A stretch of 64,000 nucleotides of DNA. Origin: a virus. Taxonomy: Duplodnaviria; Heunggongvirae; Uroviricota; Caudoviricetes. The stretch is from the IMG/VR virus record IMGVR_UViG_2713896908_000007; one strand, written 5' to 3'. A program made the position numbers and the translations under genes. Shown here in pieces: positions 27,414 to 55,144 of the stretch (its first letter is position 1; every line of letters begins with the position of its first letter). A model generated the notes under the pieces. That model was not told where the DNA came from. It saw only the letters and a list, made by a program, of their open reading frames with translations, and made no database searches.

Positions 27414-30400
27414 ATGAACAAGCTATCTATGGGGGTGTTTCGCTGTTCAAGCGTCAGCGAAATATTGAAATATATTAGGGCAATAACATCTCACCGAGCG
27501 CCGATTAAATACGGCGTGGAAAAGGTGGAAGGCAAAAGCTATGACCGACTGCGCCGGGAGGCGAATCAGAAGGCGATAGATTTGCTTAATTCGCTGGTGG
27601 ACGGCGCGACACTGACAGATGAACAGCGCCAGATCCTGGCTGGGTACACCGGTGAAGGCGGCATTGGCGGGTCCGTCTCCGAATATTACACACCAAAGCC
27701 GATCGCTGAAGGTGTCTGGGAGATCATGAAGCTCTACGGCGCGGACGTAGGTAACACTCTGGAACCATCGGCGGGAACCGGCGTTTTTAATGAGACAAAA
27801 CCGGTTGGTACGGTGATGACCGCGACTGAGATCAGCAGTGTTTCCGGTCGTATAAACCAGTTGTTACACCCGGAAGACAGCGTACAGATTTCCCCGTTCG
27901 AACAGCTGGCTATAAGCACGCCTAACGATTCATTCGACCATGTTGTGGGTAACGTTCCGTTCGGCGGTCGTGATAACACACGCAACATCGATAAGCCTTA
28001 CGCAGAAGAAACGGACATGGGTTCTTACTTCATGCTCCGCATGCTGGACAAGATAAAGCCAGGCGGATTCATGTGCGTGATTGTGCCGCCGTCCATTGTT
28101 TCAGGTTCAAACATGAAGCGGTTACGCCTGCGCCTATCACGGAAAGCTGAATTTCTTGGTGCCCACCGCTTGCCTACCGGTACTTTTGACGCAAACGGGA
28201 CCAGTACAGTCGTTGATGTGGTGCTGATGCGCAAACATCCGGCAGAGATGGCTGAGAAAATCCCCCAGGTGGATGAAAGCACTCTTGAATCGGCAAATGT
28301 GCTTTGGCCAACGTTTATTTCAGGCAAGTGGTTTGAAAAGGACGGACGCCGGTTTGTTCATGGTGCCCAGGAAAAGGGCTTCCAGGGGCGTATTGAGGTT
28401 CGTGCCGACGGGCAGATTGATAACCAGGCTCTTAAAACGAAGCTGATTCATCGTTTCGAAAGTCGTATCGACTGGTCTTTGCTCGATATGGCTGAACCGT
28501 CACCGACCGCAGATGTTGTTGATGAAGGGGAAATGCGCCTGATTAATGGCGTATGGCAAAAATATGCTGGTGGTCGCTGGATTGAAGCTGATGCTGGTAA
28601 GGAGCTTAAGATTGATGCTGCCAGTTATGGCGCGGATAGCTGGGAGGCTCTTCAGCGTAACCTGACTACAACAGAAGGCCGTCTCGGTATGACATTTACC
28701 CAGATGGCAAATGTCCGCGATAAGTACACCACATCAATCAGCGACGATATGGTGCAGCTGGTGGACTGGATTAACAGCCAGCCTGAAAAATACCGTGAAC
28801 GCTTGTATCGCGGGGCGATGATTGGCCGGATGTTAATTGAATATCAGGACATGAAGGCCGCCGGGCATAGTGCTGAACAAATCGAACAGCAGCGCCTTTC
28901 TCTGGTATCCCGTTTGCAGGCAGAGATTGATCGCTTTGGTAATCCTGGTCGCGGTCCTATAGCGAAATTGTCGGGGAGCGGTGCGCGCGCCTGGTTTGCT
29001 TTCCGTGGTGCGATTAAGCTGGATGGCACTATTTCTGACGAGCTGACAGGAAAGCTGGTTACGCATGATTCCAGCGCCAGTTATGACTCCACCAGCTATC
29101 AGGACACCCTGCGTTATCTCTATAGCGATCTTACCCGCGATCCAATCCAGCTCGATGATTTCCGCCTTGCGTTTACCGGCGAACTGCCAGCCAGTGATGA
29201 AGAGTTGCTTAATTTATTGGCCAGCACCCCTGGTATTGCGGTTTCACCGTATGGCGGGATTGTTCCGTTCGCCCGCGCCACCAGCGGCGACATTAACGAG
29301 ATAGTGGCTCCAAAACAGGAATTTCTTGCCACACTCCCCGACGGTCCAGTAAAGAACAACGTCCTTAATCAGCTGGCAGCGATCGAAGAGAAGCGCATCA
29401 AGACGCCAGCAGAGAATATCCGGTTTAAGCTCAATAGCCGTTGGTTTGACCGTTCCGTCATTCTGGAATTTTTGCAGGAAAACGGCTATCCGGATCTGCG
29501 CTATGTGCAGTCAGTGCAGCTGGAAGGCGACGAAATGGTTTCTGACACCTATCACGGTGGTGATGGTCTGTTCGTCGGGCACCGATACGGTGTCGTCCAG
29601 CGCAAGGATAAAGAAACAGGCGAGATCCGCTACGAGTGGGACCGTAAATCAGGTGAAAACGCGACCGGGTTCCCGGCACAGCTGGAAAAGTATCTCAATG
29701 GTGCGCGTATCGGTGGCAAAGATAGCGCGACGGCGAACGGCTACCGCGAGCAGATGGCACTGCTTGAGGACCAGTTCAATAAGTGGATCAAGACGCACGA
29801 TCGCTACGATGAACTGGTTGCCAAATACAACGATGTGTTCAATAGCAATATCCCGTATGAACACTCTGGCGATCCGCTTGGGTTGAAGGGATTAAGCGGT
29901 AAGCGCCAGCCATTTGATTACCAGAATAGCGAGGTGCGCCGACTGTCCGAAGATGGGCGCGGCATCTTGGGCTTCGGCACCGGGCTGGGTAAAACCACGA
30001 CCGCGCTGGCGCTTGAGGCGTTCAACTATGAGAACGGTCGCTCCACCCGTACTGCTTATGTAGTGCCTAAATCAGTGCTGGAAAACTGGTATTACGAAGC
30101 AAAAGAGTTCCTGAGTGAAGAGGCATTCAGTAACTACCTGTTCGTTGGTCTTGATGTGCTGATGGATGGCGATCAGATTCGCCAGGTGCCGGTGCTCGAC
30201 GAGAACGGTAAACCTGTCCTTGGCGCTGATGGCGCTCCCGTTATGCGCGATGCTCTTAAACTGGCAGATGAAGCCACTATCACAGCAAGGATGAACGCGA
30301 TTCCGCACTCAAATTACCGTGCAGTCGTGTTTACCAAAGAACAATACGCCCGCATTCCGCTACGTGATGACACCGTAGATGAGCATGCACAAGACATGCT

Positions 30401-33188
30401 TTATGACTTCGTTGCTGCCGGACGTGTGGCCAGCGCAATGGATTCCGACTCCCACCGCAAAGAGGCGGCGCGTCGCCGGGTATTGTCGGAGTATTCAGAT
30501 ACCGGTACCGAAAAAGCAGAGAAGTATCCGTACTTTGAGGATATGGGCTTCGACAGCGTGATTGCTGACGAAGGCCACAACTACCGCAATAGCTATAAAA
30601 ATGGTCGCGAAGCGTCACAGCTGGCCTATCTGCCCACCAGCGCGGTGGCGCAATCGGCGCGAGATATGGCAATCAAAAACGCGTACCTGATGAAAAAGAA
30701 TGGCGGGCGCGGGCCGGTTCTCCTGAGTGCAACGCCAGTCGTTAACACCCCGATCGATGCATACAACATGCTTTCTCATGTTCTGCCGAAGGAATACTGG
30801 CAGAAGATGGGGATCTACGGTCCTGATGACTTCGTTAAATTCTTCGGCAAGACCAGGCTGGAAACGGTACAGAAAATCAGCGGTGAAGTTGAAGAAAAAA
30901 TGGCGCTGGTGGGCTTTGAAAACCTTGATGCGCTGCGCGGCATATTCCATCGCTGGACAACGCTTAAAACAGCGGAAGACGTTAAGGATACCGTGGAGAT
31001 CCCGGAGCTGGACGAGCACCAGCAGGATGCACCACTTACTGAAGAACAACTGGCGGCGTATGAAGAATTGCGTCAGCAGGCGGAAGCGGCGGCCAAAGCC
31101 AACAATGGCGTAACGACCTCGGTCAATGAAGACGGCGTGATTGAGCACGAGAAAGCCCGTCCGATCTTCTCAATAATCAGGGATATGGACCGCGTATGTA
31201 CTGACATGGACCTGTACTATCGCCGGATCACCTATCGTTTCCTGCCGGAGTACGCCGATGCGGTGCAGCAGCTGGCGGACAGTTTGCCTAAACAAGCCAC
31301 CAGCGAAGACGACGACAGTGATGATTCAATCACGCAGCAATCGCAATACTCCCTGATAGATAAGGGCGAGTTTATTCAGTTGCAGGTTCCGGAAGCGTTC
31401 GAGCAGGAAGTGAATAAGCGCCTGGCCAGGTTTGGCATTGACGAACAGACCGTAACTCACCCCGTTACGCCCAAATACGCGAAGCTGATTGCCACGCTGA
31501 AGGAGTTTTTCCCGGAAGGTAAGCAAATCATCTTCACCGATGAAAAAACGCAGCACCAGAAGCTCAAGCGCATTATCTGCAATGCTCTTAACCTTGAACC
31601 TTCAAAGGTGGGGATACTGAATGCTCAGACGGTTGCCGAGGCAGGTAAAACCGGTAAGAAACTGAAAGCGGTTAAACCGCCGAAAGAGTTACCGGATGAA
31701 CCAACAGATGCACAGATAGCGAAATACAACGAGCAAATGGCTCTGTATGACGCCTATATCGCGCAGCAAAATGAAATGTCGCTGGGCGGGCTGGAAAAGA
31801 TTGCTGCCGACTTCCAGGAGGGCCGGACTCCGATCATCATCTGCAACAAAAAGGCAGAGGTGGGTATCAACCTGCATCGAGGAACGACTGACATCCATCA
31901 TCTGACGTTGCCATGGACACCAGCCAGTATCGCACAGCGTAACGGTCGCGGTGCCCGAGTTGGCTCCAACCGTGCAAGCGTTCGCGTTCACTACTACTGC
32001 GGCAAGGGTTCTTTCGATGAATACCGACTGAAGACGCTGAAGCGTAAAGCAGGCTGGATCTCCGATATCCTCCGTTCAGATAAGTCAGAAATGGAGAACG
32101 CCGACGCCAACGATATGATCGAAATGCAGATGTATACCGCTAAGGATGATGGCGAACGTCTGGCAATGATGCAGGTTCAAATGGATAAGGCGAAAGCCGC
32201 GCAACGCGCTCGCCAGAAAGAACAGGCTACTATCGACCTTCAGAACTACATCAAGGCGCAGCACGCAGCTGGTGAGGATGTGGAGGTGCTTACCGCTGAA
32301 TTAGAGCGAAGCAAAGCGGAACTTGAAAAGACCACCGCCGACGTCGCCAAATTCAAACAGGCGGTAATGGCCAAAGCAGCTGATAACGCAGACTGGAAAG
32401 CCCGCTGGGGTAGCGTCCATCACACAGACCGTACGTTGTTAGCACAGTATCGCGCGTCGTTGAAAAGCGCCATTCAGCGCAAGGCTAATATCTCTCAAGC
32501 CATCTCCCGCTATGAGAAATTATTGAACCGTACTCAGAAGGCCGCGACGGATATCAAACGCCTGCGCCCGCTGGTGGAGGATGCAATAAATAAAGGCATT
32601 ATGGATGTTGATCCTGACTTGGTTAACCATGCGAGTGAGTTCCTTGTTATCGGCGATCGCTCATGGCGTGTAGGCCAATACTACGATTGTGCCGGTGATA
32701 TCGTTCGCATTAAGTCGCTGGACTTCGACAGCCAGCGCGCAGACGTGGAGATTATCTTTACCTTCAAAGGTACCAAATCGGGTAACTGGGATGTGAAGAC
32801 GCTGGATAAACAGGTTGATGTAACTCCCGATGAAGATGCTGTTATGCAGAAAATCAGTGGTGGCGTCTCCATCGCCGGGATTAACGACATCATTTCCTGT
32901 GACGATTTCTACCGTTTCCAGCAGCGCGGCATGATCAAAATCACTGACTCATACGGCGTTCAGACTACAGAGTCAGGCTATAGCATTGATTTTGTTGGTA
33001 CCTATACGGACCCACTGAAGCATGCGGTTTACCCGGATCGCCGTGACGGCGCGCTGAAGTCGTCAATTGCAAAATGGGTGCTTGGTATGATGTCGGAAGG
33101 GAATAACCGCCAGATCCGTTCGGCAGAAACATTCCTGGTTGAACTGTTTGGCTCCAATTATGGCGATGGGAGATACGCTATCCCCTGA
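27414..33188 (+). CDS. darB: DarB-like antirestriction protein, N6-adenine methyltransferase plus helicase domains (1924 aa)
   Basis: MTase motifs LEPSAGTGVF and VVGNVPFGG; helicase motifs GFGTGLGKTT and VIADEGHNYRN. Confidence 0.8.
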   Translation: MNKLSMGVFRCSSVSEILKYIRAITSHRAPIKYGVEKVEGKSYDRLRREANQKAIDLLNSLVDGATLTDEQRQILAGYTGEGGIGGSVSEYYTPKPIAEGVWEIMKLYGADVGNTLEPSAGTGVFNETKPVGTVMTATEISSVSGRINQLLHPEDSVQISPFEQLAISTPNDSFDHVVGNVPFGGRDNTRNIDKPYAEETDMGSYFMLRMLDKIKPGGFMCVIVPPSIVSGSNMKRLRLRLSRKAEFLGAHRLPTGTFDANGTSTVVDVVLMRKHPAEMAEKIPQVDESTLESANVLWPTFISGKWFEKDGRRFVHGAQEKGFQGRIEVRADGQIDNQALKTKLIHRFESRIDWSLLDMAEPSPTADVVDEGEMRLINGVWQKYAGGRWIEADAGKELKIDAASYGADSWEALQRNLTTTEGRLGMTFTQMANVRDKYTTSISDDMVQLVDWINSQPEKYRERLYRGAMIGRMLIEYQDMKAAGHSAEQIEQQRLSLVSRLQAEIDRFGNPGRGPIAKLSGSGARAWFAFRGAIKLDGTISDELTGKLVTHDSSASYDSTSYQDTLRYLYSDLTRDPIQLDDFRLAFTGELPASDEELLNLLASTPGIAVSPYGGIVPFARATSGDINEIVAPKQEFLATLPDGPVKNNVLNQLAAIEEKRIKTPAENIRFKLNSRWFDRSVILEFLQENGYPDLRYVQSVQLEGDEMVSDTYHGGDGLFVGHRYGVVQRKDKETGEIRYEWDRKSGENATGFPAQLEKYLNGARIGGKDSATANGYREQMALLEDQFNKWIKTHDRYDELVAKYNDVFNSNIPYEHSGDPLGLKGLSGKRQPFDYQNSEVRRLSEDGRGILGFGTGLGKTTTALALEAFNYENGRSTRTAYVVPKSVLENWYYEAKEFLSEEAFSNYLFVGLDVLMDGDQIRQVPVLDENGKPVLGADGAPVMRDALKLADEATITARMNAIPHSNYRAVVFTKEQYARIPLRDDTVDEHAQDMLYDFVAAGRVASAMDSDSHRKEAARRRVLSEYSDTGTEKAEKYPYFEDMGFDSVIADEGHNYRNSYKNGREASQLAYLPTSAVAQSARDMAIKNAYLMKKNGGRGPVLLSATPVVNTPIDAYNMLSHVLPKEYWQKMGIYGPDDFVKFFGKTRLETVQKISGEVEEKMALVGFENLDALRGIFHRWTTLKTAEDVKDTVEIPELDEHQQDAPLTEEQLAAYEELRQQAEAAAKANNGVTTSVNEDGVIEHEKARPIFSIIRDMDRVCTDMDLYYRRITYRFLPEYADAVQQLADSLPKQATSEDDDSDDSITQQSQYSLIDKGEFIQLQVPEAFEQEVNKRLARFGIDEQTVTHPVTPKYAKLIATLKEFFPEGKQIIFTDEKTQHQKLKRIICNALNLEPSKVGILNAQTVAEAGKTGKKLKAVKPPKELPDEPTDAQIAKYNEQMALYDAYIAQQNEMSLGGLEKIAADFQEGRTPIIICNKKAEVGINLHRGTTDIHHLTLPWTPASIAQRNGRGARVGSNRASVRVHYYCGKGSFDEYRLKTLKRKAGWISDILRSDKSEMENADANDMIEMQMYTAKDDGERLAMMQVQMDKAKAAQRARQKEQATIDLQNYIKAQHAAGEDVEVLTAELERSKAELEKTTADVAKFKQAVMAKAADNADWKARWGSVHHTDRTLLAQYRASLKSAIQRKANISQAISRYEKLLNRTQKAATDIKRLRPLVEDAINKGIMDVDPDLVNHASEFLVIGDRSWRVGQYYDCAGDIVRIKSLDFDSQRADVEIIFTFKGTKSGNWDVKTLDKQVDVTPDEDAVMQKISGGVSIAGINDIISCDDFYRFQQRGMIKITDSYGVQTTESGYSIDFVGTYTDPLKHAVYPDRRDGALKSSIAKWVLGMMSEGNNRQIRSAETFLVELFGSNYGDGRYAIP

Positions 33189-34167
33189 AGCAATTCAGGA
33201 GAAAATAGCGGATGCGATCGCCAGAATGCCGGAAAAAACAAACCAGGGGGCTACTCGTAACGGGGATTCTGAACTTGAAGTCACCAATGCCATTTTCGGT
33301 ACCAATGAGTTCCGGGCGTCAGATTATGAGATCACCACAGCACAGTTTGGCACCATTGGCATTTACAGCAATAAAGACGAGATCAAGCAGGCAATGGACG
33401 CAGCAAGTGCGCGCATTGCAGCAGAACGGAAAGCCAATCTGAATCATGCAGTCGCCGCGCTGACTCAATCGTGGGTAACAGCAATCAGGGAGGCCGCCAC
33501 CACAGGAAAAATCACACCGGCAATTGCGGATGTCGTAAACGACGGCTCTAAATTTATGGATGCCTATCAAATGGATGCGGTGCAGTTGCCATCAGCCTAT
33601 GGCCAACTCAGCTATCGCATGACCTACAACCTGGTATCAATGTTTTCCGACCTTGCCATCCTTGGGCTGGTGGACCTTAACGAGGTTACGCCGGAATTGC
33701 TCAGCATGCGCAAGAACCATGTGGAGATATTGCACAGAATTAACACGGTACTTTCCGGGCGCACCGATGAAGAGAAACAGGCAGACGCTGATCGGATAAA
33801 CCTAGCCCTTGGCAACATCACGGAGGAAGAAATTGCCGCCAGAAACGAGAAACAAGAAGAGTTATCATCAATACAGGGTGATGCCACCAGCATAGCTCAG
33901 TCTCTTGGTCTGAATTATCGCGTATCCACCGCCGACCTGAAGATGATGTACGCACCAAAATTCGCCGCTGGCGAGGTATTTGGGCTTCAGGAAGCCTCAG
34001 GCATGAAAGGCGTTCTTTTCCGTGCGAAAGACGCAATCAAGGCGAAATTCGGCGCTCGCTGGCTGCCAGCGAAGGCGAAGAACAGCGATTTCCCGGGTAA
34101 CTGGTGGATTATCGAGACAAAACACAACGTGGCGGACGTTCTGGCCGTCATCCAACAATACGCATAA
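33160..34167 (+). CDS. Hypothetical protein in darB operon (335 aa; start uncertain)
   Basis: First in-frame ATG 33160 overlaps darB 3' end; track ORF starts at TTG 33139. Confidence 0.5.
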   Translation: MAMGDTLSPEAIQEKIADAIARMPEKTNQGATRNGDSELEVTNAIFGTNEFRASDYEITTAQFGTIGIYSNKDEIKQAMDAASARIAAERKANLNHAVAALTQSWVTAIREAATTGKITPAIADVVNDGSKFMDAYQMDAVQLPSAYGQLSYRMTYNLVSMFSDLAILGLVDLNEVTPELLSMRKNHVEILHRINTVLSGRTDEEKQADADRINLALGNITEEEIAARNEKQEELSSIQGDATSIAQSLGLNYRVSTADLKMMYAPKFAAGEVFGLQEASGMKGVLFRAKDAIKAKFGARWLPAKAKNSDFPGNWWIIETKHNVADVLAVIQQYA

Positions 34168-34200
34168 CAGGAGCGCCCGGTTCGCCGGGTGTCGCATAAT

Positions 34201-34641
34201 ATGGCCACACTATCTGATACAATAAAACCGAATAAAACATATCTTGAGGCGGTACTCCGTACAGCGTTGTTAGGAAAGACAGAAGACGAATACGTTGATT
34301 TCTTCCTGTCAGGGCTACGCGGGCGATTACTGAAAAATCCCCGCCTGTACCGCAGCTATGGTCCATACTGGCCGGAAATTAAAAAATTATTACTGGAGCG
34401 CGGTTATGGTAATTTCGGTCGTCTCGTTGACCGTGACGTTCGCAAAATTTACCGTTATGACCGCCCGGCGCTAACACTCATAGCCGCGACGCTCTACAGC
34501 CAGGAGCGTTTTGATAATGGTCAGATATACTCAGCCTGGCATTTACTGCCAGTGCCTGAAGAAGTTGACGACCAGGACTATGAGTTTGAGTCTTACGATT
34601 TGGAAGTTGAAGCCTTGGCACAGGCTGGAGAGAAAACTTGA
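34201..34641 (+). CDS. Ulx-like protein (146 aa)
   Basis: ORF immediately upstream of lxc/bof-like gene; track ORF starts at GTG 34189. Confidence 0.5.
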   Translation: MATLSDTIKPNKTYLEAVLRTALLGKTEDEYVDFFLSGLRGRLLKNPRLYRSYGPYWPEIKKLLLERGYGNFGRLVDRDVRKIYRYDRPALTLIAATLYSQERFDNGQIYSAWHLLPVPEEVDDQDYEFESYDLEVEALAQAGEKT

Positions 34642-34886
34642 AAAAGCGATACTACACAGTAAAGCATGGGACGCTACGAGCATTACAAGAGTTTGCTGAC
34701 AAGCATAACGTTGAGGTGCGCAGGGAAGGGGGAAGTAAAGCTCTGCGCATGTACCGTCCTGACGGAAAATGGCGGACGGTCGTCGATTTCAAAACTAACA
34801 GCGTTCCCCAGGGCGTCCGCGACCGGGCATTCGAAGAATGGGAGCAGATCATCATAGATAATGCATTGCTTCTGAATGCTGATTAA
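34638..34886 (+). CDS. lxc: Lxc/Bof-like C1 co-repressor (82 aa, TTG start)
   Basis: GGAG 7 nt upstream of TTG overlapping upstream stop; size and TTG start agree with what I recall for P1 bof. Confidence 0.5.
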   Translation: MKKRYYTVKHGTLRALQEFADKHNVEVRREGGSKALRMYRPDGKWRTVVDFKTNSVPQGVRDRAFEEWEQIIIDNALLLNAD

Positions 34887-34894
34887 TGGTTTTG

Positions 34895-34930
34895 TTTCCC
34901 GGTATCGTATTATACCGGGAAATATCTTTT
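34895..34930 (+). terminator. Rho-independent terminator (TTTCCCGGTAT..ATACCGGGAAA + T-run)
   Basis: Perfect 11-bp stem 34895..34922 followed by TATCTTTTT. Confidence 0.75.
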
Positions 34931-34934
34931 TATA

Positions 34935-35333
34935 TTAACCCGCGGCTGCAATTAGTGCTGACCCAACCGCCAGTGTGGTGACAAGGCCTATAATGACCAC
35001 TGTCGCTGTTACCCCTCCTGCAACAGCAGCTCCAGTCTTTGTTTTGGATAACTCTTTCTTTTCTAGAGAAATGATTTCACCCATAGGAATAGACTGGTTG
35101 TTAATACCATTGATATATTGTGGGGTAACTTTCGATACTGTCATTTCACCTTCGCTACCTGATTTTAACTTGTATTTAATTAGGTCACCAGCATATATCG
35201 GCGGCTCCGTTAAATAATAGGTACTTCTTTCAAGATTTTTCTGCTGTATGTTAACTCCCTGATAAGACTGACATCCACATAACACAAGCGATAAAATTAG
35301 CGTTGTCAGTAATTTTCTTTTGTTTTTTATCAT
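34935..35333 (-). CDS. Lipoprotein with C-terminal glycine-zipper membrane segment (132 aa)
   Basis: AAGGAG 8 nt upstream of ATG 35333; lipobox-like LSLVLCGC; C-terminus GAAVAGGVTATVVIIGLVTTLAVGSALIAAAG; AT-rich. Confidence 0.65.
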   Translation of the reverse strand: MIKNKRKLLTTLILSLVLCGCQSYQGVNIQQKNLERSTYYLTEPPIYAGDLIKYKLKSGSEGEMTVSKVTPQYINGINNQSIPMGEIISLEKKELSKTKTGAAVAGGVTATVVIIGLVTTLAVGSALIAAAG

Positions 35334-35467
35334 TGCCAGCACTCCTTCTCCTTTTCTTTGTATAGCTAAAACACATTATTTATTCTTGTCAAATAGTTTT
35401 GAGTTTGAGAGTGAGGTTTGCGTGACGACGCTCTAAAAGTTGCAGATAGCGGTAAAGATAATTTTAT

Positions 35468-36109
35468 TTACAATATGTTACCTTTTCCGGTAAGTATGCC
35501 TTGCGGTACTTTACTTTCCCCCATTAGTTGAGTGGCATGAATGATATTAATAAATGACATTAGTTGTGATGAACTCTTATTAACATTTATCTCTCCTGCC
35601 ATTGCCCTAATGTAGTCGGCGCTTGCAACGTTGTTATATTCCGTTGCGAAGCAGCATAACAACGTCAGAACGTGCTCTGTCGTTATTTCGCTCCAGTTGA
35701 TGTTGAAAAATTCATCGCCTTTTTTGTCATGTTCGGAATCGAAGATGCTTTGGTGGAGGATGTATTTGCCGGATTCCTTGCGCGGTAACTTGATCGCTTT
35801 CTGGCGTTCCAATTCCTTGTAAATCTGCATTGCTTCAATCAGTACCGGCCTGCCGTTCATGAAGGGATCGCGCAACCTTACACGCTGGCCAACTCGACCA
35901 GTAATAAAGCTGTTTTCCTCTTCCACCAGCACGATAAAACCCTTTTCCTCTTTTTCTCGCAATTCGCGCAGCAGCTGGAGTTCCATATCGCGGCGGCGTT
36001 CAGGGTAGCTGGTCCGCTCAGCCATTATCAGCTCGTTATTGATCCATGCAGCAGTCATTGACGCCGGTTTGCCGACGTTCATCGAAACAACGCATATTTT
36101 CTTATCCAT
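35468..36109 (-). CDS. Hypothetical protein (213 aa)
   Basis: ATG 36109 with AGGGGG upstream; starts MDKKICVVSMNVGKPA; track ORF extends upstream without support. Confidence 0.55.
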   Translation of the reverse strand: MDKKICVVSMNVGKPASMTAAWINNELIMAERTSYPERRRDMELQLLRELREKEEKGFIVLVEEENSFITGRVGQRVRLRDPFMNGRPVLIEAMQIYKELERQKAIKLPRKESGKYILHQSIFDSEHDKKGDEFFNINWSEITTEHVLTLLCCFATEYNNVASADYIRAMAGEINVNKSSSQLMSFINIIHATQLMGESKVPQGILTGKGNIL

Positions 36110-36298
36110 AGCGCCCCCTACAAAAAAGAAAAGCCACCAGCGGCGGCTTAGCAATACAACTGAAGGTAGCGCCCGGTACTCAGACTGTGCCGTCCATGGA
36201 ATATTTGAAAAGGGATCCATCCGTACCGGGCGTGTGATGATTCTGACTGAAGTCACTTGTCAGTTGTCAATCATTTATTATTAAAAATAATATATTTA

Positions 36299-36859
36299 TT
36301 AGTGCATGACGTTTGCCATCTCGTAAGCGTCAGCCAGCAACTCCATCTCTGACTTGTTCAGCAAGGTGAATTCTTTCTTGCCTCCAACCACACCATCGGC
36401 ATGAACAGGGACCAGCCAGGGGTATTTTGCTCTTACTTCAGCCGGTGCTGCATGCTGGTGGTGCCATCTACAAAGAGGCAATTGCTTTTTATGACAACCC
36501 GGCGCGGTACGACCGGCGATATGGTGCAGAGACACCTCATTAGATATTACTCCATGCATATAGCAGGCAATGCAGGGGAGAGCGCCAAGAGCATTGGCGA
36601 TGCGCCGTTCCTCCGCCGTTGGTGTTCTCCCCTTCAAGCCACGAGATTTTATTTTTACCGCGCTTTTCCGCGTTTTGCTGGCTGGTGGGCGTTCTTTCTG
36701 TTTAGCGATACGGCGGTCGATAGTATCCCGCATTTTCTGATATTGAGATTCTCGCCAGACCGGATCAGCCAACTTCTCCCGTTGCCGAGCGATCGCTCGT
36801 TCTCTGGCTGCCTTCTGCCACTTACGGTGCTGTTCAATTTTTTGTTCGATTGTTTTCAT
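36299..36859 (-). CDS. ref: Ref recombination enhancement HNH endonuclease (186 aa)
   Basis: HNH/zinc motifs CIACYMHG..HH..CHKKQLPLCRWHH; located downstream of cre-cra. Confidence 0.9.
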   Translation of the reverse strand: MKTIEQKIEQHRKWQKAARERAIARQREKLADPVWRESQYQKMRDTIDRRIAKQKERPPASKTRKSAVKIKSRGLKGRTPTAEERRIANALGALPCIACYMHGVISNEVSLHHIAGRTAPGCHKKQLPLCRWHHQHAAPAEVRAKYPWLVPVHADGVVGGKKEFTLLNKSEMELLADAYEMANVMH

Positions 36860-36864
36860 AAGGT

Positions 36865-36890
36865 AAAAAAAAGGCGGCCTTTAGGCCGCC
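36865..36890 (-). terminator. Attenuator-type intrinsic terminator 5 nt upstream of ref start
   Basis: On the minus strand GGCGGCC-uaaa-GGCCGCC followed by eight U, then ACCUU-AUG of ref. Confidence 0.7.
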
Positions 36891-36957
36891 AATGATTTCA
36901 AAGGAGTAGGTAATGGCCATGTGTTCGTAGTTGACTCACGCCACCTCTAAATTATAA

Positions 36958-36974
36958 CAACAAATTAGAGCAAT
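36958..36974 (-). promoter_or_regulatory. C1 operator-like site (13/17; ATTGCTCTAAT core intact) with adjacent TTATAAT
   Basis: Minus strand reads ATTGCTCTAATTTGTTGTTATAAT upstream of ref attenuator. Confidence 0.55.
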
Positions 36975-37105
36975 GATAGCTATTTTATTTATCGCGAATC
37001 ACATTCTTTCACTTTGGCACCTATGTGCTATACTCGTTCTTGATTGATTGGATGCGGAATACAAACCCGCTTTTTTGTGCAGCCTGGCTCCTTGCCAGGC
37101 TTTTT

Positions 37106-37417
37106 TTATTTCATCATGGAAGCTGTTAACGCTTTGGACCTTGCAGAACTGATTGAGAGGGCTTTGTCAACGTGCCCCAAAAATTCTCCAAACTCAGACA
37201 TCACTTTGGCAAAACCGCGCCGTGCTTCTTCCTCGGTGGCATTCATCACGAAATGTTCAGCACTACGCATACTTTTGACAGGGAACGCAACGGATATTGA
37301 GTCAATATCAGGCATTCTATCGCTCAACTTTACAGTGACAATGACGGCTGGCGACTGAATATTAGTGCTTACAGACAGCAGTACATATTTTCCGTCGATG
37401 TTGAAATCCTTTCTCAT
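37106..37417 (-). CDS. cra: Cra-like protein (103 aa)
   Basis: ORF immediately downstream of cre, preceded by operator-like site. Confidence 0.55.
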   Translation of the reverse strand: MRKDFNIDGKYVLLSVSTNIQSPAVIVTVKLSDRMPDIDSISVAFPVKSMRSAEHFVMNATEEEARRGFAKVMSEFGEFLGHVDKALSISSARSKALTASMMK

Positions 37418-37433
37418 ATGTCACCATAAATGT

Positions 37434-37450
37434 AAAATAATTAGAGCAAT
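37434..37450 (-). promoter_or_regulatory. C1 operator-like site (15/17)
   Basis: AAAATAATTAGAGCAAT between cre stop and cra start. Confidence 0.65.
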
Positions 37451-37467
37451 TTCTTATGAATTAACGG

Positions 37468-38499
37468 CTAATCACCATCTTCCAGTAGGCGCACCATTGC
37501 CCCCGTTTCACTATCCAGGTTACGAATGTAGTTCATGACAATATTTACGTTGGTCCAGCCGCCAGCTTGCATGATCTCCGGTATAGAAACTCCGGCGCGG
37601 GCCATATCTCGCGCGGCACCGACACGGGCACTATGTCCAGACCAGGCCAGGTATCGCTGACCAGAGTCATCTTTTGCCCCGTAAATCAATCGGTGAGTTG
37701 CTTCAAAAATCCCTTCCAGGGCGCGAGTTGATAGCTGGCTGGTGGATGATGGCGCGGCAACACCATTTTTTCTGACGCGGCAAAACAGGTAGTTATTCGG
37801 ATCATCAGCTACACCAGAGACAGAAATCCATCGCTCAACCAGTTTAGTTACCCCCAGGCTAAGTGCCTTCTCTACACCAGCGGTGCTAACCAGCGTTTTC
37901 GTTCTGCCAATATGGATTAACATTCTCCCACCGTCAGTACGTGAGATATCTTTAACCCTGATCCTGGAAATTTCGGCTATACGTAACAGGGTGTTATAAG
38001 CAATCCCCAGAAATGCCAGATTACGTATATCCTGGCAGCGATCGCTATTTTCCATGAGTGAACGAACCTGGTCGAAATCAGTGCGTTCGAACGCCAGTGC
38101 CTGTTTTGCACGTTCACCGGCATCAACGTTTTCTTTTCGGATCCGTCGCATGACCAGTGAAACAGCATTGCTGTCACTTGGTCGTGGCAGACCGGACCGA
38201 CGATGAAGCATATTTAGCTGGCCCAAATGTTGCTGGATAGTTTTCACTGCCAGACCACGCGCCTGAAGATATAGAAGATAATCGCGAACATCTTCAGGTT
38301 CTGCGGGAAACCACTTCCGGTTATTCAACTTGCACCATGCCGCCCACGACCGGCAAACGGACAGAAGCATTTTCCAGGTATGCTCAGAAAACGCCTGGCG
38401 ATCCCTGAACATGTCCATCAGGTTCTTGCGAACCTCATCACTCGTTGCATCGACCGGTAATGCAGGCAAATTTTGGTGTACGGTCAGTAAATTGGACAT
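37468..38499 (-). CDS. cre: Cre tyrosine recombinase (343 aa)
   Basis: Protein begins MSNLLTVHQNLPALPVDATSDEVRKNLMDMFRDRQAFSEHTWKMLLSVCRSWAAWCKLNN and ends ..RLLEDGD; loxP lies ~420 bp upstream. Confidence 0.98.
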   Translation of the reverse strand: MSNLLTVHQNLPALPVDATSDEVRKNLMDMFRDRQAFSEHTWKMLLSVCRSWAAWCKLNNRKWFPAEPEDVRDYLLYLQARGLAVKTIQQHLGQLNMLHRRSGLPRPSDSNAVSLVMRRIRKENVDAGERAKQALAFERTDFDQVRSLMENSDRCQDIRNLAFLGIAYNTLLRIAEISRIRVKDISRTDGGRMLIHIGRTKTLVSTAGVEKALSLGVTKLVERWISVSGVADDPNNYLFCRVRKNGVAAPSSTSQLSTRALEGIFEATHRLIYGAKDDSGQRYLAWSGHSARVGAARDMARAGVSIPEIMQAGGWTNVNIVMNYIRNLDSETGAMVRLLEDGD

Positions 38500-44965: not shown

Positions 44966-45011
44966 AAAAGGCCCGGAACGGGCAAGCAATCAGCAAACAA
45001 CCGCCGAGAAC

Positions 45012-45034
45012 CCTCGCCCAATGCGGGCGGGGAG
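45012..45034 (+). repeat. Left flanking hairpin repeat of TnpB element
   Basis: CCTCGCCCAATGCGGGCGGGGAG; stem CGCCC/GGGCG. Confidence 0.8.
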
Positions 45035-45115
45035 GAAAGGCGGGAAAGCCCACAGGGCTTTAAAAAAAAATCATTACGGTGTTAGCATAAAAACCTGTAT
45101 CAATGAGCGGTGACT

Positions 45116-46291
45116 ATGTTAAGAGCGACAAAAGTACGCATCTATCCAACCACTAAACAGGCTGAGTATCTCAACGCCCAGTTCGGCGCCGTGCGTTTTG
45201 CGTACAACAAAGCTCTTCACATCAAAAAACACGCTTACCAGCGACACGGAGTGAATTTAAGTCCGCGTAAAGATTTAAAACCGTTGTTGTCTGTGGCGAA
45301 GAAGTCCCGTAAGTATGCCTGGCTTAAAGAATTTGATTCAATGGCATTGCAACAGGCGGTGATTAATCTTGATGTGGCGTTTTCCAACTTTTTTAATCCG
45401 AAGCTGAAAGCCCGGTTCCCGACGTTTAAACGTAAACATGGGAAGCAATCGAGCTACCATTGTGTCGGGATTAAAGTACTGGAGAATGCCATCAAAATTC
45501 CTAAGCTGGCACCGATAGAAGCGCGTATACACCGTGTAATGACGGGAAAAGTGACGAGCATAACAATCACTCGCAGTGCCACCGGGAAATACTACGCATC
45601 CATCCTTTGTGAAGACGGTATTCCCACACCAGCGAAACCTGCGTATCTGGAGGAAGAAAAGATTACTGGTGTGGATATGGGACTTGAGCACTATGCCATC
45701 AGGTCTGACCGGGCAAAAATTGCGAATCCCCGCCATCTCATCAATGCCAGCCGTAATCTGCGACGCAAACAAAAAGCGCTATCCCGCAAGCAAAAGGGAA
45801 GCGCGAATCGTAAAAAGGCCAGAATCCGTCTTGCGGCCATACACGAACGGGTAGCGAATGCCCGTGCTGATTTTCAACATAAACTTTCTCGTACAATTGT
45901 TGACGAAAACCAAGCGGTAATTGTCGAGACGCTGAAAACAGCCAACATGATGAAAAACCACAATCTGGCAAGAGCAATAGGTGATGCAGGCTGGCATAGC
46001 TTCATCACAAAGCTGGAGTACAAGGCAGCGGAAAAAGGCGTTCACCTGGTAAAACTCGACCAGTGGTTTGCCAGTTCGAAAACGTGCCATTGTTGTGGTT
46101 ACAAAATGCCGGAAATGCCGCTTCATAAACGCATCTGGCGATGCCCTGAATGTGAAGCAGAGCATGACCGCGATATCAATGCGGCACTCAACATCCGGCA
46201 AAAAGGGATACTGGAACTAAAGGCGGCGGGACTCGTCGTCTCTGCCCATGGAGGCCAGCGTAAATCCGTCGTACAGACGGTTGCGGCCTGA
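45116..46291 (+). CDS. tnpB: TnpB (IS200/IS605 OrfB family, 391 aa)
   Basis: N-terminus MLRATKVRIYPTTKQAEYL; RuvC-like motifs GVDMGL, VIVETL, HDRDINAALNI; zinc finger CHCCGY..CPECEAEHD. Confidence 0.9.
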   Translation: MLRATKVRIYPTTKQAEYLNAQFGAVRFAYNKALHIKKHAYQRHGVNLSPRKDLKPLLSVAKKSRKYAWLKEFDSMALQQAVINLDVAFSNFFNPKLKARFPTFKRKHGKQSSYHCVGIKVLENAIKIPKLAPIEARIHRVMTGKVTSITITRSATGKYYASILCEDGIPTPAKPAYLEEEKITGVDMGLEHYAIRSDRAKIANPRHLINASRNLRRKQKALSRKQKGSANRKKARIRLAAIHERVANARADFQHKLSRTIVDENQAVIVETLKTANMMKNHNLARAIGDAGWHSFITKLEYKAAEKGVHLVKLDQWFASSKTCHCCGYKMPEMPLHKRIWRCPECEAEHDRDINAALNIRQKGILELKAAGLVVSAHGGQRKSVVQTVAA

Positions 46292-46302
46292 GATGTGGGA
46301 AG

Positions 46303-46324
46303 CCTCGCCCAACCGGGCGGGGAG
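46303..46324 (+). repeat. Right flanking hairpin repeat of TnpB element
   Basis: CCTCGCCCAACCGGGCGGGGAG, 21/22 identical to the left copy. Confidence 0.8.
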
Positions 46325-48901: not shown

Positions 48902-50464
48902 ATGAAAATGACAAGTATTCAACAACGTGCAGAGCTTCATCGTCAAATCTGGCAAATTGCTAACGATGTCAGGGGTTCGGTCGATGGATGGGATTTTAAG
49001 CAATACGTTCTGGGCGCACTTTTCTACCGTTTTATCAGCGAAAATTTTTCCAGTTATATGGAAAATGGTGATGACAGCATCTGTTATGCGGCACTTGATG
49101 ACGGCATTATTACTGATGACATTAAAGACGATGCCATCAGAACCAAAGGCTACTTCATCTACCCCAGTCAGCTTTTCTGCAACGTAGCGGCGAAAGCAAA
49201 TACCAATGACAGACTGAATGCAGATTTAAATAGTATCTTCGTTGCTATCGAAAGCTCTGCTTACGGTTACCCTTCAGAAGCTGACATCAAAGGTTTGTTT
49301 GCTGATTTTGATACAACCAGTAACCGCCTGGGTAACACCGTTAAGGATAAAAATGCCCGCCTGGCTGCGGTTCTGAAAGGGGTCGAAGGGTTAAACCTTG
49401 GTGACTTCAATGAACATCAGATTGACCTGTTCGGTGATGCCTATGAGTTCCTGATTTCTAACTATGCGGCAAATGCCGGTAAGTCAGGCGGTGAGTTCTT
49501 TACACCGCAGCACGTCTCCAAGCTGATTGCACAACTGGCTATGCACGGGCAGACCCACGTTAACAAAATCTACGACCCGGCCGCGGGTTCCGGTTCGCTG
49601 TTGTTGCAGGCTAAAAAGCAGTTTGATAACCATATCATTGAAGAAGGCTTTTTCGGACAGGAAATCAACCATACGACCTATAACCTGGCACGTATGAACA
49701 TGTTTTTGCACAACATCAACTACGACAAGTTTGATATCAAGCTGGGCAATACGCTGACTGAACCGCACTTCAGAGATGAAAAACCGTTTGATGCCATCGT
49801 CTCTAACCCGCCGTATTCGGTGAAATGGATTGGCAGCGATGACCCGACGCTGATTAACGATGAACGTTTTGCCCCGGCTGGCGTTCTGGCCCCCAAATCC
49901 AAAGCTGACTTTGCGTTTGTACTACATGCGCTGAACTATCTTTCGGCCAAAGGTCGCGCCGCGATTGTCTGCTTCCCGGGTATTTTTTACCGTGGCGGCG
50001 CGGAGCAGAAAATCCGTCAGTATCTGGTTGACAATAACTATGTCGAAACCGTGATTTCACTGGCACCGAACCTGTTCTTTGGCACCACCATTGCCGTAAA
50101 TATTCTGGTGCTGTCTAAACATAAAACGGATACCAAAGTTCAGTTTATTGACGCCAGCGAACTGTTCAAAAAAGAGACTAACAACAACATCCTGACCGAT
50201 GCCCATATCGAAAAAATTATGCAGGTATTTTCCAGCAAGGAAGATGTTGCTCATCTGGCGAAATCTGTCACGTTTGAGACCGTTGTCGCGAATGACTATA
50301 ACCTGTCGGTAAGCAGCTATGTGGAAGCGAAAGATAACCGCGAAATTATCGATATCGGTGAGCTGAATGCTGAGCTGAAAACCACGGTCAGCAAAATCGA
50401 CCAGTTGCGCAAAGATATTGATGCGATTGTGGCTGAAATTGAAGGCTGCGAGGTGCAGAAATGA
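48902..50464 (+). CDS. hsdM: Type I restriction-modification methyltransferase subunit HsdM (520 aa)
   Basis: Motifs [15 protein letters not shown] and [10 protein letters not shown]. Confidence 0.95.
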
Positions 50465-51681
50465 GCGAGATGAGTTATCTGGAAAAATTGCTGGATGGGG
50501 TTGAGGTTGAGTGGTTGCCATTGGGGGAAGTCTCAGCCTTAAGAAGAGGCAGAGTTATGTCAAAGGGATATTTAACTGAAAATTTTGGCCCATATCCTGT
50601 CTATAGCTCTCAAACTGCAAATAATGGGAAAATAGGTTCTATCAATACCTTCGATTTTGATGGCGAATATATAAGCTGGACAACAGATGGCGCAAATGCA
50701 GGCACTGTGTTCTATCGAACAGGTAAATTTTCAATAACTAATGTTTGCGGCCTGATTACATTAAAAAGTAAATACCCATTAATCTACAAATTTCTGTTTT
50801 ACTGGCTAACAATAGAAGCCAAAAAACATGTTTACTCAGGAATGGGAAACCCCAAGTTAATGAGTCATCAGGTTGAAAATATACCTGTACCAATCCCCTG
50901 CCCGGATAATCCGGAAAAATCCCTTGCCATCCAGTCTGAAATCGTTCGGATTCTGGATAAATTTACTGAGCTTACAGCTGAGCTTACAGCTGAGCTTACA
51001 GCTGAGCTTACCATGCGTAAAAAACAGTACAACTACTATCTTGACCAGTCGCTAAGTTTTAAAGAGGGTGAGGTCGAGTTGAAAACGTTGGGAGAGATGG
51101 GGACACTTATAAGAGGCAAACGCTTTGTGAAATCCGACATAATTCCCAAGGGAGTACCGTGTATTCACTACGGTGAAATGTATACCCATTACCGCATCTG
51201 GGCGGATAAAGCAAAATCGTATATCTCTGTTGAATTAGCGTCCAAGTTAAGAAAAGCCTCATGCGGAGATGTTGTTTTTGTCTCTGCGGGTGAAACAATT
51301 GCAGATATTGGTCGTGGAACAGCCTGGTTAGGCGATGAAGATGTTGTTATTCATGACGCATGTTTTTTCTATAAAAGTTCATTGAACCCCAAGTATGTGG
51401 CCTACTTCTCAAGAACAAATTTCTTCCACGATCAGATTAAAAAATCGATCTCTTCGGGGAAAATTTCTGCCATCAATGCCAAAGGCTTTGAAAAAGTGAT
51501 TATTCCAGTTCCTTCACCAGAAGAACAAGCACGCATCGTTGCTTTCTTGGACAAATTCGACACATTGACAAGCTCCATCACCGAAGGCTTACCCCGTGAA
51601 ATAGAACTACGCCAGAAGCAGTACGAGTACTATCGTGATTTACTGTTCAGTTTCCCAAAACCTGAAGCTGTCAGTAATTAA
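50461..51681 (+). CDS. hsdS: Type I specificity subunit HsdS, type IC-like with TAEL repeats (406 aa)
   Basis: ATGA overlap with hsdM; central [16 protein letters not shown] repeat between two target-recognition domains. Confidence 0.9.
50968..51012 (+). repeat. 12-bp tandem repeat (GAGCTTACAGCT x3 plus partial copy) in hsdS central region
   Basis: Direct reading of 50968..51012. Confidence 0.95.
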
Positions 51682-51802
51682 TTGACCATTGCTACCGACC
51701 GGGCCACCTTAACACCCGGTCAGTATATAGACTATTTTTTACACGCTGGAAGTCACCATTAACGCCCTTCCGGCCCTTGCCAGACGGCACAAAGGATACG
51801 CT

Positions 51803-54800
51803 ATGACTCATCAAACACACACCATTGCTGAATCCAATAACTTTATCGTTCTTGATAAATACATCAAAGCTGAGCAAACAGGCGACAGCTATCAGAGCGA
51901 ATCGGACCTGGAACGTGAACTGATTCAGGACCTGCAAAATCAGGGCTATGAATTTATATCCGTAAAATCACAGTCAGCGATGCTGGCCAACGTTCGGGAA
52001 CAGCTTCAGAGCCTCAATGGTGTGATGTTTAATGACAGAGAGTGGCGGCGTTTCACGGAGCAGTATCTGGACAACCCGAGCGATGGCATTCTGGATAAGA
52101 CCCGTAAAATCCATATCGACTATATTTGCGACTTTATTTTTGATGACGAGCGACTTGAGAACATCTATTTGATAGATAAAAAGAATCTCATGCGCAATAA
52201 GGTGCAGATTATCCAGCAGTTTGAACAGACGGGTTCTCATGCTAACCGTTATGACGTCACGATCCTGGTTAATGGTTTACCGCTGGTGCAAATCGAACTA
52301 AAAAAACGCGGGGTGGCGATTCGTGAGGCTTTCAACCAGATACATCGTTACAGTAAAGAGAGTTTTAACAGCGAAAATTCCCTGTTTAAGTATCTGCAAC
52401 TGTTTGTCATTTCTAACGGCACCGATACCCGTTACTTTGCCAACACCACAAAGCGCGATAAAAACAGTTTTGACTTCACAATGAACTGGGCGAAATCAGA
52501 CAACACGCTGATTAAAGACCTCAAAGACTTTACCGCTACCTTTTTCCAGAAACATACTCTGCTGAATGTTCTGGTGAACTACAGCGTTTTTGACAGTAGT
52601 CAGACGCTACTGGTGATGCGACCGTACCAGATTGCAGCTACCGAACGAATTTTATGGAAAATCAACAGTTCCTATAAAGCGAAAAACTGGTCCACTCCCG
52701 AAAGTGGTGGCTTTATCTGGCACACCACCGGTTCCGGTAAAACACTGACCAGCTTTAAAGCCGCGCGTCTGGCAACAGAACTGGACTTTATTGATAAAGT
52801 CTTCTTCGTGGTCGACAGAAAAGACCTCGATTACCAGACGATGAAGGAATATCAGCGTTTTTCGCCAGACAGCGTCAACGGCTCGGAAAATACCGCAGGA
52901 CTTAAACGAAATCTGGATAAGGACGATAACAAAATTATCGTCACCACTATTCAGAAACTCAATAACCTGATGAAAGCAGAAAGCGACCTGCCTGTATACA
53001 ATCAGCAAGTGGTGTTTATATTTGATGAATGTCACCGCAGCCAGTTTGGAGAAGCACAGAAAAACCTGAAGAAGAAATTCAAACGCTATTATCAGTTTGG
53101 TTTTACCGGCACACCTATTTTCCCGGAAAACGCCTTAGGCTCAGAAACAACCGCCAGCGTATTTGGCCGTGAATTGCATTCATATGTTATTACCGATGCG
53201 ATTCGTGACGAAAAAGTGCTCAAATTCAAGGTGGACTACAACGATGTGCGGCCACAGTTTAAGTCTTTAGAGACAGAAACTGACGAGAAAAAACTGAGTG
53301 CGGCTGAAAATCAGCAGGCGTTTCTTCATCCCATGCGTATTCAGGAAATCACGCAATATATCCTGAACAACTTCCGCCAGAAAACCCACCGTACTTTCCC
53401 TGGTTCCAAAGGTTTTAATGCCATGCTGGCAGTAAGCAGCGTGGATGCTGCAAAAGCCTATTATGCGACGTTTAAACGGTTACAAGAGGAAGCCGCTAAT
53501 AAATCTGCAACTTATAAACCGCTGCGTGTTGCGACAATCTTCTCCTTTGCCGCTAATGAAGAACAAAATGCCATTGGTGAAATTTCCGATGAAACTTTTG
53601 ATACCAGCGCAATGGACAGCAGTGCTAAAGAGTTTCTTGACGCTGCAATTCGTGAGTATAACAGCTATTTTAAAACTAACTTCAGCACCGACGGTAACGG
53701 TTTTCAGAACTACTATCGTGATTTAGCCCAACGGGTTAAAAATCAGGATATCGATCTGTTAATTGTCGTTGGGATGTTTTTAACCGGCTTCGACGCTCCA
53801 ACATTGAACACGCTATTCGTCGATAAAAACTTGCGTTTTCACGGCCTGATGCAGGCATTTTCCCGCACCAACCGTATTTATGATGCAACTAAAACCTTCG
53901 GTAATATCGTCACTTTCCGCGATCTGGAACGCTCAACCATCGATGCCATAACGCTGTTTGGTGACAAAAACACCAAAAATGTAGTGTTAGAAAAGAGTTA
54001 TGCAGAGTATATGGAAGGCTTTACTGATGCTGCTACTGGTGAAGCTAAGCGCGGCTTTATGGCAGTAGTTGCAGAACTGGAACAACGGTTCCCTGACCCT
54101 GCCAGTATTGAAAGTGAAAAAGAGAAGAAAGACTTCGTTAAACTGTTTGGTGAATACCTGCGTACCGAGAACATCCTGCAAAACTATGATGAATTTGCCA
54201 CGCTGAAAGCCCTGCAACAAATCGATCTTAGCGATCCTGTTGCAGTAGAAAAATTCAAAGCAGAACATTATGTGGATGATGAAAAGCTCGCTGAATTGCA
54301 AACAATTCGTCTCCCTGCTGATCGCAAGATTCAGGATTATCGTTCTGCCTATAACGATATTCGCGACTGGCAGCGCCGTGAGAAAGAAGCTGAGAAAAAA
54401 GAGAAATCAACCATTGACTGGGATGACGTAGTTTTTGAGGTCGATTTGCTGAAGTCTCAGGAAATAAACCTGGATTATATCCTTGGACTGATTTTCGAAC
54501 ACAACAGACAAAATAAAGGCAAGGGCGAAATGATCGAAGAGGTCAAACGCTTAATTCGTTCAAGCCTAGGGAACCGTGCTAAAGAGGGCTTGGTGGTCGA
54601 TTTTATTCAGCAAACGAACCTGGATGATTTACCAGATAAAGCCAGTATCATTGAGGCATTCTTTACGTTTGCTCAACGCGAACAGCAACGTGAAGCAGAA
54701 GCATTGATAAAAGAAGAAAATCTCAATGAAGAAGCAGCAAAACGCTATATTCGCACGTCTTTAAAACGCGAATACGCCACCGAAAATGGCACAGAATTAA

Positions 54801-54919
54801 ACGAAACATTACCAAAACTTAGTCCGTTGAATCCGCAATATAAAACGAAAAAACAGGCAGTTTTCCAGAAAATCGTCTCGTTTATTGAGAAGTTTAAAGG
54901 CGTAGGCGGAAAAATATAG
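51803..54919 (+). CDS. hsdR: Type I restriction endonuclease/translocase subunit HsdR (1038 aa)
   Basis: Walker [13 protein letters not shown]; DEAD-box-like [10 protein letters not shown]; helicase motifs; AAGGA 6 nt upstream. Confidence 0.95.
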
Positions 54920-55085: not shown

Positions 55086-55113
55086 ATCCTCAGCTCCTGT
55101 GATTGATTGGATA

Positions 55114-55144
55114 CATGCCGCGCCTTGCGGCATGTTTTTATTTT
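55114..55144 (+). terminator. Rho-independent terminator downstream of hsdR
   Basis: CATGCCGC-gcctt-GCGGCATG followed by TTTTTATTTT. Confidence 0.75.

Follow-up and report, generated by a model that had tools for sequence, protein, structure and literature searches.

The analysed window is a 64,000-nucleotide stretch of Caudoviricetes DNA (IMG/VR record IMGVR_UViG_2713896908_000007), and it contains three consecutive genes of a type I restriction–modification system (Table 1). According to the ORF map, the genes are arranged in the order hsdM-hsdS-hsdR and are all located on the plus strand. The hsdM stop codon overlaps the hsdS start by 4 nt, while hsdS and hsdR are separated by a gap of 121 bp. 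The initial annotation had identified the middle gene as hsdS, and the two Methylase_S stretches found in this ORF agree with this. A scan for promoters and terminators gave weak consensus matches only, and promoter-like sites were no commoner than in shuffled sequences.

Table 1. Features of the hsdMSR locus; positions are numbered from the first letter of the window.
Feature	Position	Strand	Basis
hsdM, type IC methyltransferase subunit, 520 aa, intact	48902..50464	+	Pfam N6_Mtase 9e-122, HsdM_N
hsdS, specificity subunit, 406 aa, intact	50461..51681	+	Pfam Methylase_S, two stretches
HsdS N-terminal conserved region, residues ~1–24	50461..50532	+	identical to EcoR124 HsdS; boundary approximate
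HsdS TRD1, residues ~25–143	50533..50889	+	without meaningful similarity to EcoR124 TRD1
HsdS central conserved region, coiled-coil helix D1, residues ~144–214, holds the repeat	50890..51102	+	conserved with EcoR124 HsdS
12-bp tandem array, GAGCTTACAGCT x3 + GAGCTTAC	50966..51011	+	sequence, TRF, translation
HsdS TRD2, residues ~215–347	51103..51501	+	variable vs EcoR124
HsdS distal conserved region, helix D2, residues ~348–406	51502..51678	+	conserved with EcoR124
hsdR, restriction/translocase subunit, 1038 aa, intact	51803..54919	+	Pfam HSDR_N, SWI2_SNF2, T1R_D3-like, EcoR124_C
Terminator-like hairpin, 10-bp stem and T run, 3' of hsdR	55113..55135	+	consensus match only

The gene content of the window identified it as a P1-like (Punavirus) phage-plasmid. 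The genes c1, ant, icd, pacB, pacA, lpa, pdcB, doc and phd are located upstream of hsdMSR, and a gene for a PNKP-type phosphatase and pmgS are located downstream; cre, darA and a darB-like gene were also found. The closest record, the E. albertii plasmid pEA16-1_1, has 3 mismatches to the window over 6,055 bp. The same hsdS, apart from 1 nt, is found on the E. coli plasmid pET6.1-IncY, whose backbone is 2–3% diverged from that of the window. Compared with this plasmid, the window has 52 substitutions in hsdM, the last at position 50188, and 62 in hsdR, the first at position 52149; the 1.96-kb segment lying between these positions (50189–52148, namely the end of hsdM, hsdS and the start of hsdR) contains just two or three. 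Recombination in the conserved flanks seems to have carried the hsdS allele, as a cassette, between P1-like backbones that have diverged from each other.

Some other features of the element are worth describing. Two ORFs encoding IS605-family TnpB proteins (OrfB/Cas12f-like TNB) were found at positions 24454–25584 and 45110–46291, both on the plus strand. The latter lies within a 1.33-kb segment (44993–46324) between pacA and lpa, and since the related plasmids L001 and L003–L007 lack this segment, it is an insertion specific to the window element or its lineage. The anti-restriction genes of P1 are represented by the gene for DarA (13907–15826, plus strand; Pfam DarA_N and DarA_C) and the gene for a 1924-aa methylase-helicase, presumably DarB-like (27414–33188, plus strand). 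In the published gene map of P1, the type III res and mod genes sit between cre and darB. In the window, the interval from cre (37468–38499, minus strand) to the darB-like gene is only about 4.3 kb long (33189–37467), which is too short for res and mod. Therefore, EcoP1I is probably replaced in this element by the type IC system, which occupies another site, adjoining phd-doc. A literature search for type I systems in P1-like phage-plasmids gave nothing relevant.

The locus had been related by the initial annotation to type IC systems of the EcoR124 family, and a comparison with proteins of known structure bore this out. The window HsdM is identical to the EcoR124 M protein (7bst_D) at 508 of 520 positions (97.7%; 12 substitutions, ungapped), and HsdR aligned with EcoR124 HsdR (2w00_A) over residues 1–1038 of both proteins, ungapped and with a score of 2259 bits. 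The best PDB match of HsdS was EcoR124 HsdS (7bst_A), over its full length; the N-terminal, central and C-terminal blocks of the two proteins are near-identical, but both target recognition domains (TRDs) are dissimilar. Such families were first defined by complementation, hybridisation and antibody cross-reaction. At the level of sequence, the kinship of HsdM and HsdR, the M-S-R gene order, the layout of HsdS and a TAEL repeat were all found in the window. Based on the HsdM and HsdR matches, the gene order and the conserved regions of HsdS, the system was assigned to type IC, EcoR124 family. Note that a tandem repeat of a four-residue motif (TAEL or similar) within the central conserved region is itself a type IC criterion (PMC10030836, PMC3874165).

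Such a repeat had been reported in the initial annotation as a perfect 12-bp tandem repeat with three full copies and a partial one, located between the two TRDs at positions 50968–51012 and encoding 16 residues. Both the sequence and the TRF tool indicate that the repeat is real and perfect, and the alignment to EcoR124 HsdS places it in the central conserved region, between the TRDs. Three copies of GAGCTTACAGCT follow each other head-to-tail at positions 50968–51003, and GAGCTTAC follows at positions 51004–51011. The reported start is thus correct, but base 51012 is C instead of the A of the unit, so the perfect repeat stops at 51011, one base earlier than reported. The CT at positions 50966–50967, just upstream of the three-copy block, fits the 12-bp unit too, and TRF called an array of 46 bp from 50966 to 51011 with a period of 12, 3.8 copies, 100% matches and 0 indels. 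Read in codon register, the array is ACTGAGCTTACA GCTGAGCTTACA GCTGAGCTTACA GCTGAGCTTACC, that is, four units with a single off-unit base at each outer end. It is in frame with hsdS and encodes TEL-(TAEL)x3-T (residues 169–184), which matches the 16-residue product reported earlier.

Two arrays in the window had a TRF score of at least 50, and the hsdS array was the sole perfect one. A perfect 46-bp array with a period of 12 would be expected by chance about 4e-16 times in 64 kb, according to a rough estimate. An imperfect tandem repeat with a 30-bp unit (2.6 copies, 69% matches) was found at positions 8488–8566, within a 1172-aa ORF (5337–8855). In the ORF map of the window, no opposite-strand ORF of at least 80 aa overlaps the hsdS array, and an explanation of the array by an antisense ORF was dropped for this reason.

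The distance between the LDKF and R(K/Q)KQY motifs is 17 residues in both D1 and D2 of the window HsdS; therefore, the three-copy form is the symmetric one, with D1 equal in length to D2. This symmetry agrees with the remark in a review that three repeats appear to be optimal (PMC3874165). The central block is four residues longer than that of EcoR124I. As for the TRDs, the TRD1 cluster of the window was also found in the type IC alleles L010, L011 and L083, and a relative of TRD1 is present in an HsdS of Suttonella (L110). Among the sampled loci, the TRD2 cluster was found with the window allele only. No TRD relatives of known specificity were found in the PDB: the matches, namely EcoR124 HsdS and a Thermoanaerobacter HsdS, ran through the conserved regions only, and prediction of the target from the TRDs was therefore abandoned. 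A search for a paper giving a motif for this allele found none. The exact HsdS sequence was absent from a collection of 15 billion proteins, in which the nearest entry was a two-copy form, P0001. The window hsdS is thus a previously uncharacterised allele of the EcoR124 family with a new TRD pair.

The role of the repeat in this family has been described for the enzymes EcoR124I, which contains the 12-bp D1 sequence twice and recognises GAA N6 RTCG, and EcoR124II, which contains it three times and recognises GAA N7 RTCG (PMC3874165). An extra TAEL increases the distance between the DNA-binding domains by about 0.34 nm and turns them by about 36 degrees (PMC3874165), and the change in copy number between the two enzymes was attributed to unequal crossing-over (Loenen et al. 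2014, PMC3874165). What the initial annotation had said of the EcoR124 family in general, that copy number sets the spacer length and can change by unequal crossing-over, is therefore established in the literature. The window has in common with EcoR124I/II its HsdM, HsdR, gene order, HsdS conserved regions and the position of TAEL. With its three TAEL, the window allele equals EcoR124II in repeat length, and a natural two-copy sister of this allele mirrors EcoR124I. However, both TRDs are unrelated to those of EcoR124, so the half-sites recognised must differ. The carriers differ too: EcoR124I/II are encoded on the conjugative plasmid R124, whereas the window system is located on a P1-like phage-plasmid. 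In addition, the residue ahead of the array is E in the window (TEL) and A in EcoR124 (TAL), and this E extends the perfect DNA repeat of the window to 46 bp. The codons of the unit are GCTGAGCTTACA in the window, in contrast to GCTGAGCTTACC in the variant that is commonest among the sampled loci and has the EcoR124-type TAL...N flanks.

Other type IC systems were also considered. EcoDXXI (TCA N7 RTTC) and EcoprrI (CCA N7 RTGC) have the same number of repeats as the window, but their TRDs and carriers are their own. In both enzymes, three repeats go with methylated adenines that are 8 nt apart, and EcoR124/EcoDXXI hybrids with two or three repeats had spacers exactly as predicted (PMC3874165). 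An HsdS record annotated as EcoprrI matched about 37% of the window query, which is approximately the proportion of the gene that does not encode the two TRDs; no prrC-like gene was found embedded in the window operon using the ORF map. The NgoAV system of N. gonorrhoeae, also type IC, similarly contains a central repeat of four amino acids (LEAT/EATL) whose copy number varies naturally, and this variation tracks N6/N7 motifs in PacBio methylomes (PMC6789123). It differs from the window system in species and in the phase and sequence of the repeat; moreover, the specificity of NgoAV is also tied to a frameshift that truncates HsdS, while the window hsdS is full length.

The protein P0001 (402 aa), the best protein match, corresponds to the window HsdS minus one TAEL and with the substitution A403T. 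It is encoded on seven contigs that were read, and six of them, originating from six samples, were fetched. All have the same c1-ant-pacAB-lpa-doc-phd-hsdMSR context with P1-like synteny, and each contains exactly one 12-bp unit fewer than the window, with identical flanks. The three-copy form of the window allele is represented by the window, L001 and L002, and the two-copy form by P0001 and L003–L008. Three copies were found in the window, CP043218 and CP117651, which are complete records independent of each other. Over 17,166 bp, the three-copy plasmid pET6.1-IncY (L001) and the two-copy GCA_020417445.1 (L003) differ by 1 mismatch and one 12-bp gap. Thus, the window allele exists with two repeat numbers, its TRDs and the rest of the gene being the same, and because plasmids with 1 SNP in 17 kb differ by one unit, the comparison shows a recent change of the repeat number of this allele in nature. 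An invariant copy number had been named in the initial annotation as an observation that would speak against switching; instead, the same hsdS was found with 2 and 3 units in near-isogenic P1-like plasmids.

To extend the comparison beyond the window allele, 80 loci with HsdM were retrieved from IMG/VR, and a recognisable type IC hsdS was present in 55 of them. Two TAEL were found in 36 of these genes and three in 19; none of the 55 had one or four. This restriction to two forms is what would be expected if the repeat were a fixed piece of the coiled coil with a stable copy number, and if the two- and three-copy genes were old alleles inherited separately. Such a static repeat is nevertheless improbable. 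It does not fit the near-isogenic plasmids, which are one unit apart with 1 SNP over 17.2 kb, nor a second pair with the same TRDs, the phage contigs L040 and L041, with 0 substitutions in hsdS and one 12-bp gap. In a third pair of phage contigs with two and three copies and the same TRDs (L014 and L034), 3 aa substitutions and a 4-aa gap were found. In addition, the units within alleles are homogenised: they are identical at synonymous sites within one allele and differ between alleles (GCTGAGCTTACC, GCAGAGCTTACA, GCCGAGCTGACA and others). Repeated loss and regeneration of units would produce such a pattern, which indicates ongoing turnover. As a separate observation, the two TRD-coding halves of the L040/L041 hsdS have a DNA sequence identity of 80%, which implies that the predicted target of this HsdS is nearly palindromic.

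The presence of one-copy and five-copy arrays in E. coli also argues against a static repeat. The DNA of the central region (50890–51102) matched 1332 E. coli records of complete genomes, and 60 of them, evenly spaced, were sampled, with copy number being determined from the length of the query span versus that of the record span. The three-copy length was found in approximately 23 records and the two-copy length in approximately 30; two records had the one-copy length, and another two the five-copy length (24 bp longer). Three of the 60 records were fetched and the copy-number reading was upheld. A single TAEL was found in an intact 419-aa hsdS on the plasmid p98210 (L124). Five-TAEL arrays were found in the chromosomes of JA0266 (L122) and ETEC1717 (L123), at locus positions of about 1580–1660, and both hsdS genes are truncated by IS elements, namely ISEc45 in JA0266 and IS3 in ETEC1717. 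These two cases hint that the array drifts under relaxed selection and is held at two or three copies in working genes. Among the protein matches, P0027, P0046 and P0070 have the one-copy length, and no four-copy alleles were found in the top 120 of these matches.

Arrays of at least four TAEL units were searched for with degenerate codons. Two stretches were found in viral contigs, neither confirmed as part of a complete hsdS, and 30 in species-representative genomes, with no Enterobacteriaceae among the latter. About 24 HsdS-like ORFs from many phyla in the species-representative genomes (L092–L121) contain 4–10 consecutive TAEL at the same position, IVRILDxFTEL-(TAEL)n-TARKKQY; examples are the arrays of L110 (5554–5648), L115 (7618–7712) and L099 (3177–3223). 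The partner helix D2 was 17 residues long in the 11 long-array ORFs examined (20 residues in two of them). In Suttonella ornithocola, a full-length HsdS of 415 aa contains 9 units, and its TRD1 is clearly related to that of the window.

It could also be assumed that copy number does change but that one of the forms is inactive or relaxed, so that a change would mean loss or attenuation of activity and not a clean switch between N6 and N7. A change of D1 without a change of D2 must shift the register of the coiled coil (PMC3874165), and the location of both inspected five-copy E. coli arrays in IS-disrupted pseudogenes suggests selection against unusual lengths. However, both lengths were active with the predicted specificity in EcoR124I/II and in the EcoR124/EcoDXXI hybrids (PMC3874165), and both are common in intact E. 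coli hsdS genes located beside intact hsdM and hsdR, which makes an inactive or relaxed form quite improbable. Finally, although tandem repeats are prone to mis-assembly and the two-copy records are short-read or metagenome assemblies, it is very hard to believe that the differences are assembly or sequencing artefacts, given that the 46-bp array is shorter than the reads and k-mers (contig names k141, k119), that two copies were found in six independent samples with several assemblers and three copies in three independent complete records, and that the difference is always exactly one in-frame unit.

Taken with a probability of roughly 0.85, the preferred explanation is that the array is the spacer-setting TAEL repeat of D1 in a type IC HsdS, present at the three-TAEL length and carried by a P1-like phage-plasmid. 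By analogy with the EcoR124 enzymes, the three-copy window allele would recognise a bipartite target with methylated adenines 8 nt apart (N7), and in the target of the two-copy sister, the same half-sites would lie one base closer together (N6). Unequal crossing-over between the perfect units, or slippage between them during replication, would shift the copy number in 12-bp steps, and each unit gained or lost would add or remove about one helical turn of D1, with the two TRDs being shifted and rotated. Both the effect on the spacer length of the target of the window enzyme and the molecular route of the change are inferred from this analogy. The near-isogenic differences between two and three copies are changes between isolates and should be set apart from the frequency of phase variation within a culture; the evidence for switching consists of between-isolate polymorphism only. 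Thus, of the built-in route to switch specificity that the initial annotation had proposed for this locus, the change in copy number is supported by the near-isogenic pairs, while its effect on the target would follow from what is known of the family.

The TAEL spacer mechanism is already established, and its presence in the window hsdS is not surprising. Work by Price in 1989 is said to be a source for this mechanism as established biology, beside that of Loenen in 2014. The present analysis adds a natural two-copy sister of the window allele, found in a near-isogenic phage-plasmid, and the copy-number survey, as well as an EcoR124-family hsdS with a new pair of TRDs, carried by a P1-like phage-plasmid of E. 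coli and E. albertii. The three pairs with the same TRDs and two or three copies, one of them with 1 SNP in 17 kb, are clean natural evidence of very recent change. With such natural strain pairs, methylomes could be used to test the N6/N7 rule beyond the classical plasmids.

The finding bears on how phage-plasmids diversify their defence specificity. Near-isogenic wild elements are one unit apart in at least three independent hsdS alleles, and a tentative further proposal is that the TAEL array serves P1-like phage-plasmids as a working switch of specificity that operates recurrently. Its corollary, put forward just as tentatively, is that the family tolerates or exploits larger helix mismatches: arrays of 4–10 units in other phyla, combined with a D2 of 17 residues, suggest that it may do so beyond the paradigm of two and three copies. 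If the array is indeed a recurrent switch, lysogen populations would be mixtures of N6 and N7 restriction types, and this would shape superinfection and the exchange of plasmids and phages among E. coli and E. albertii.
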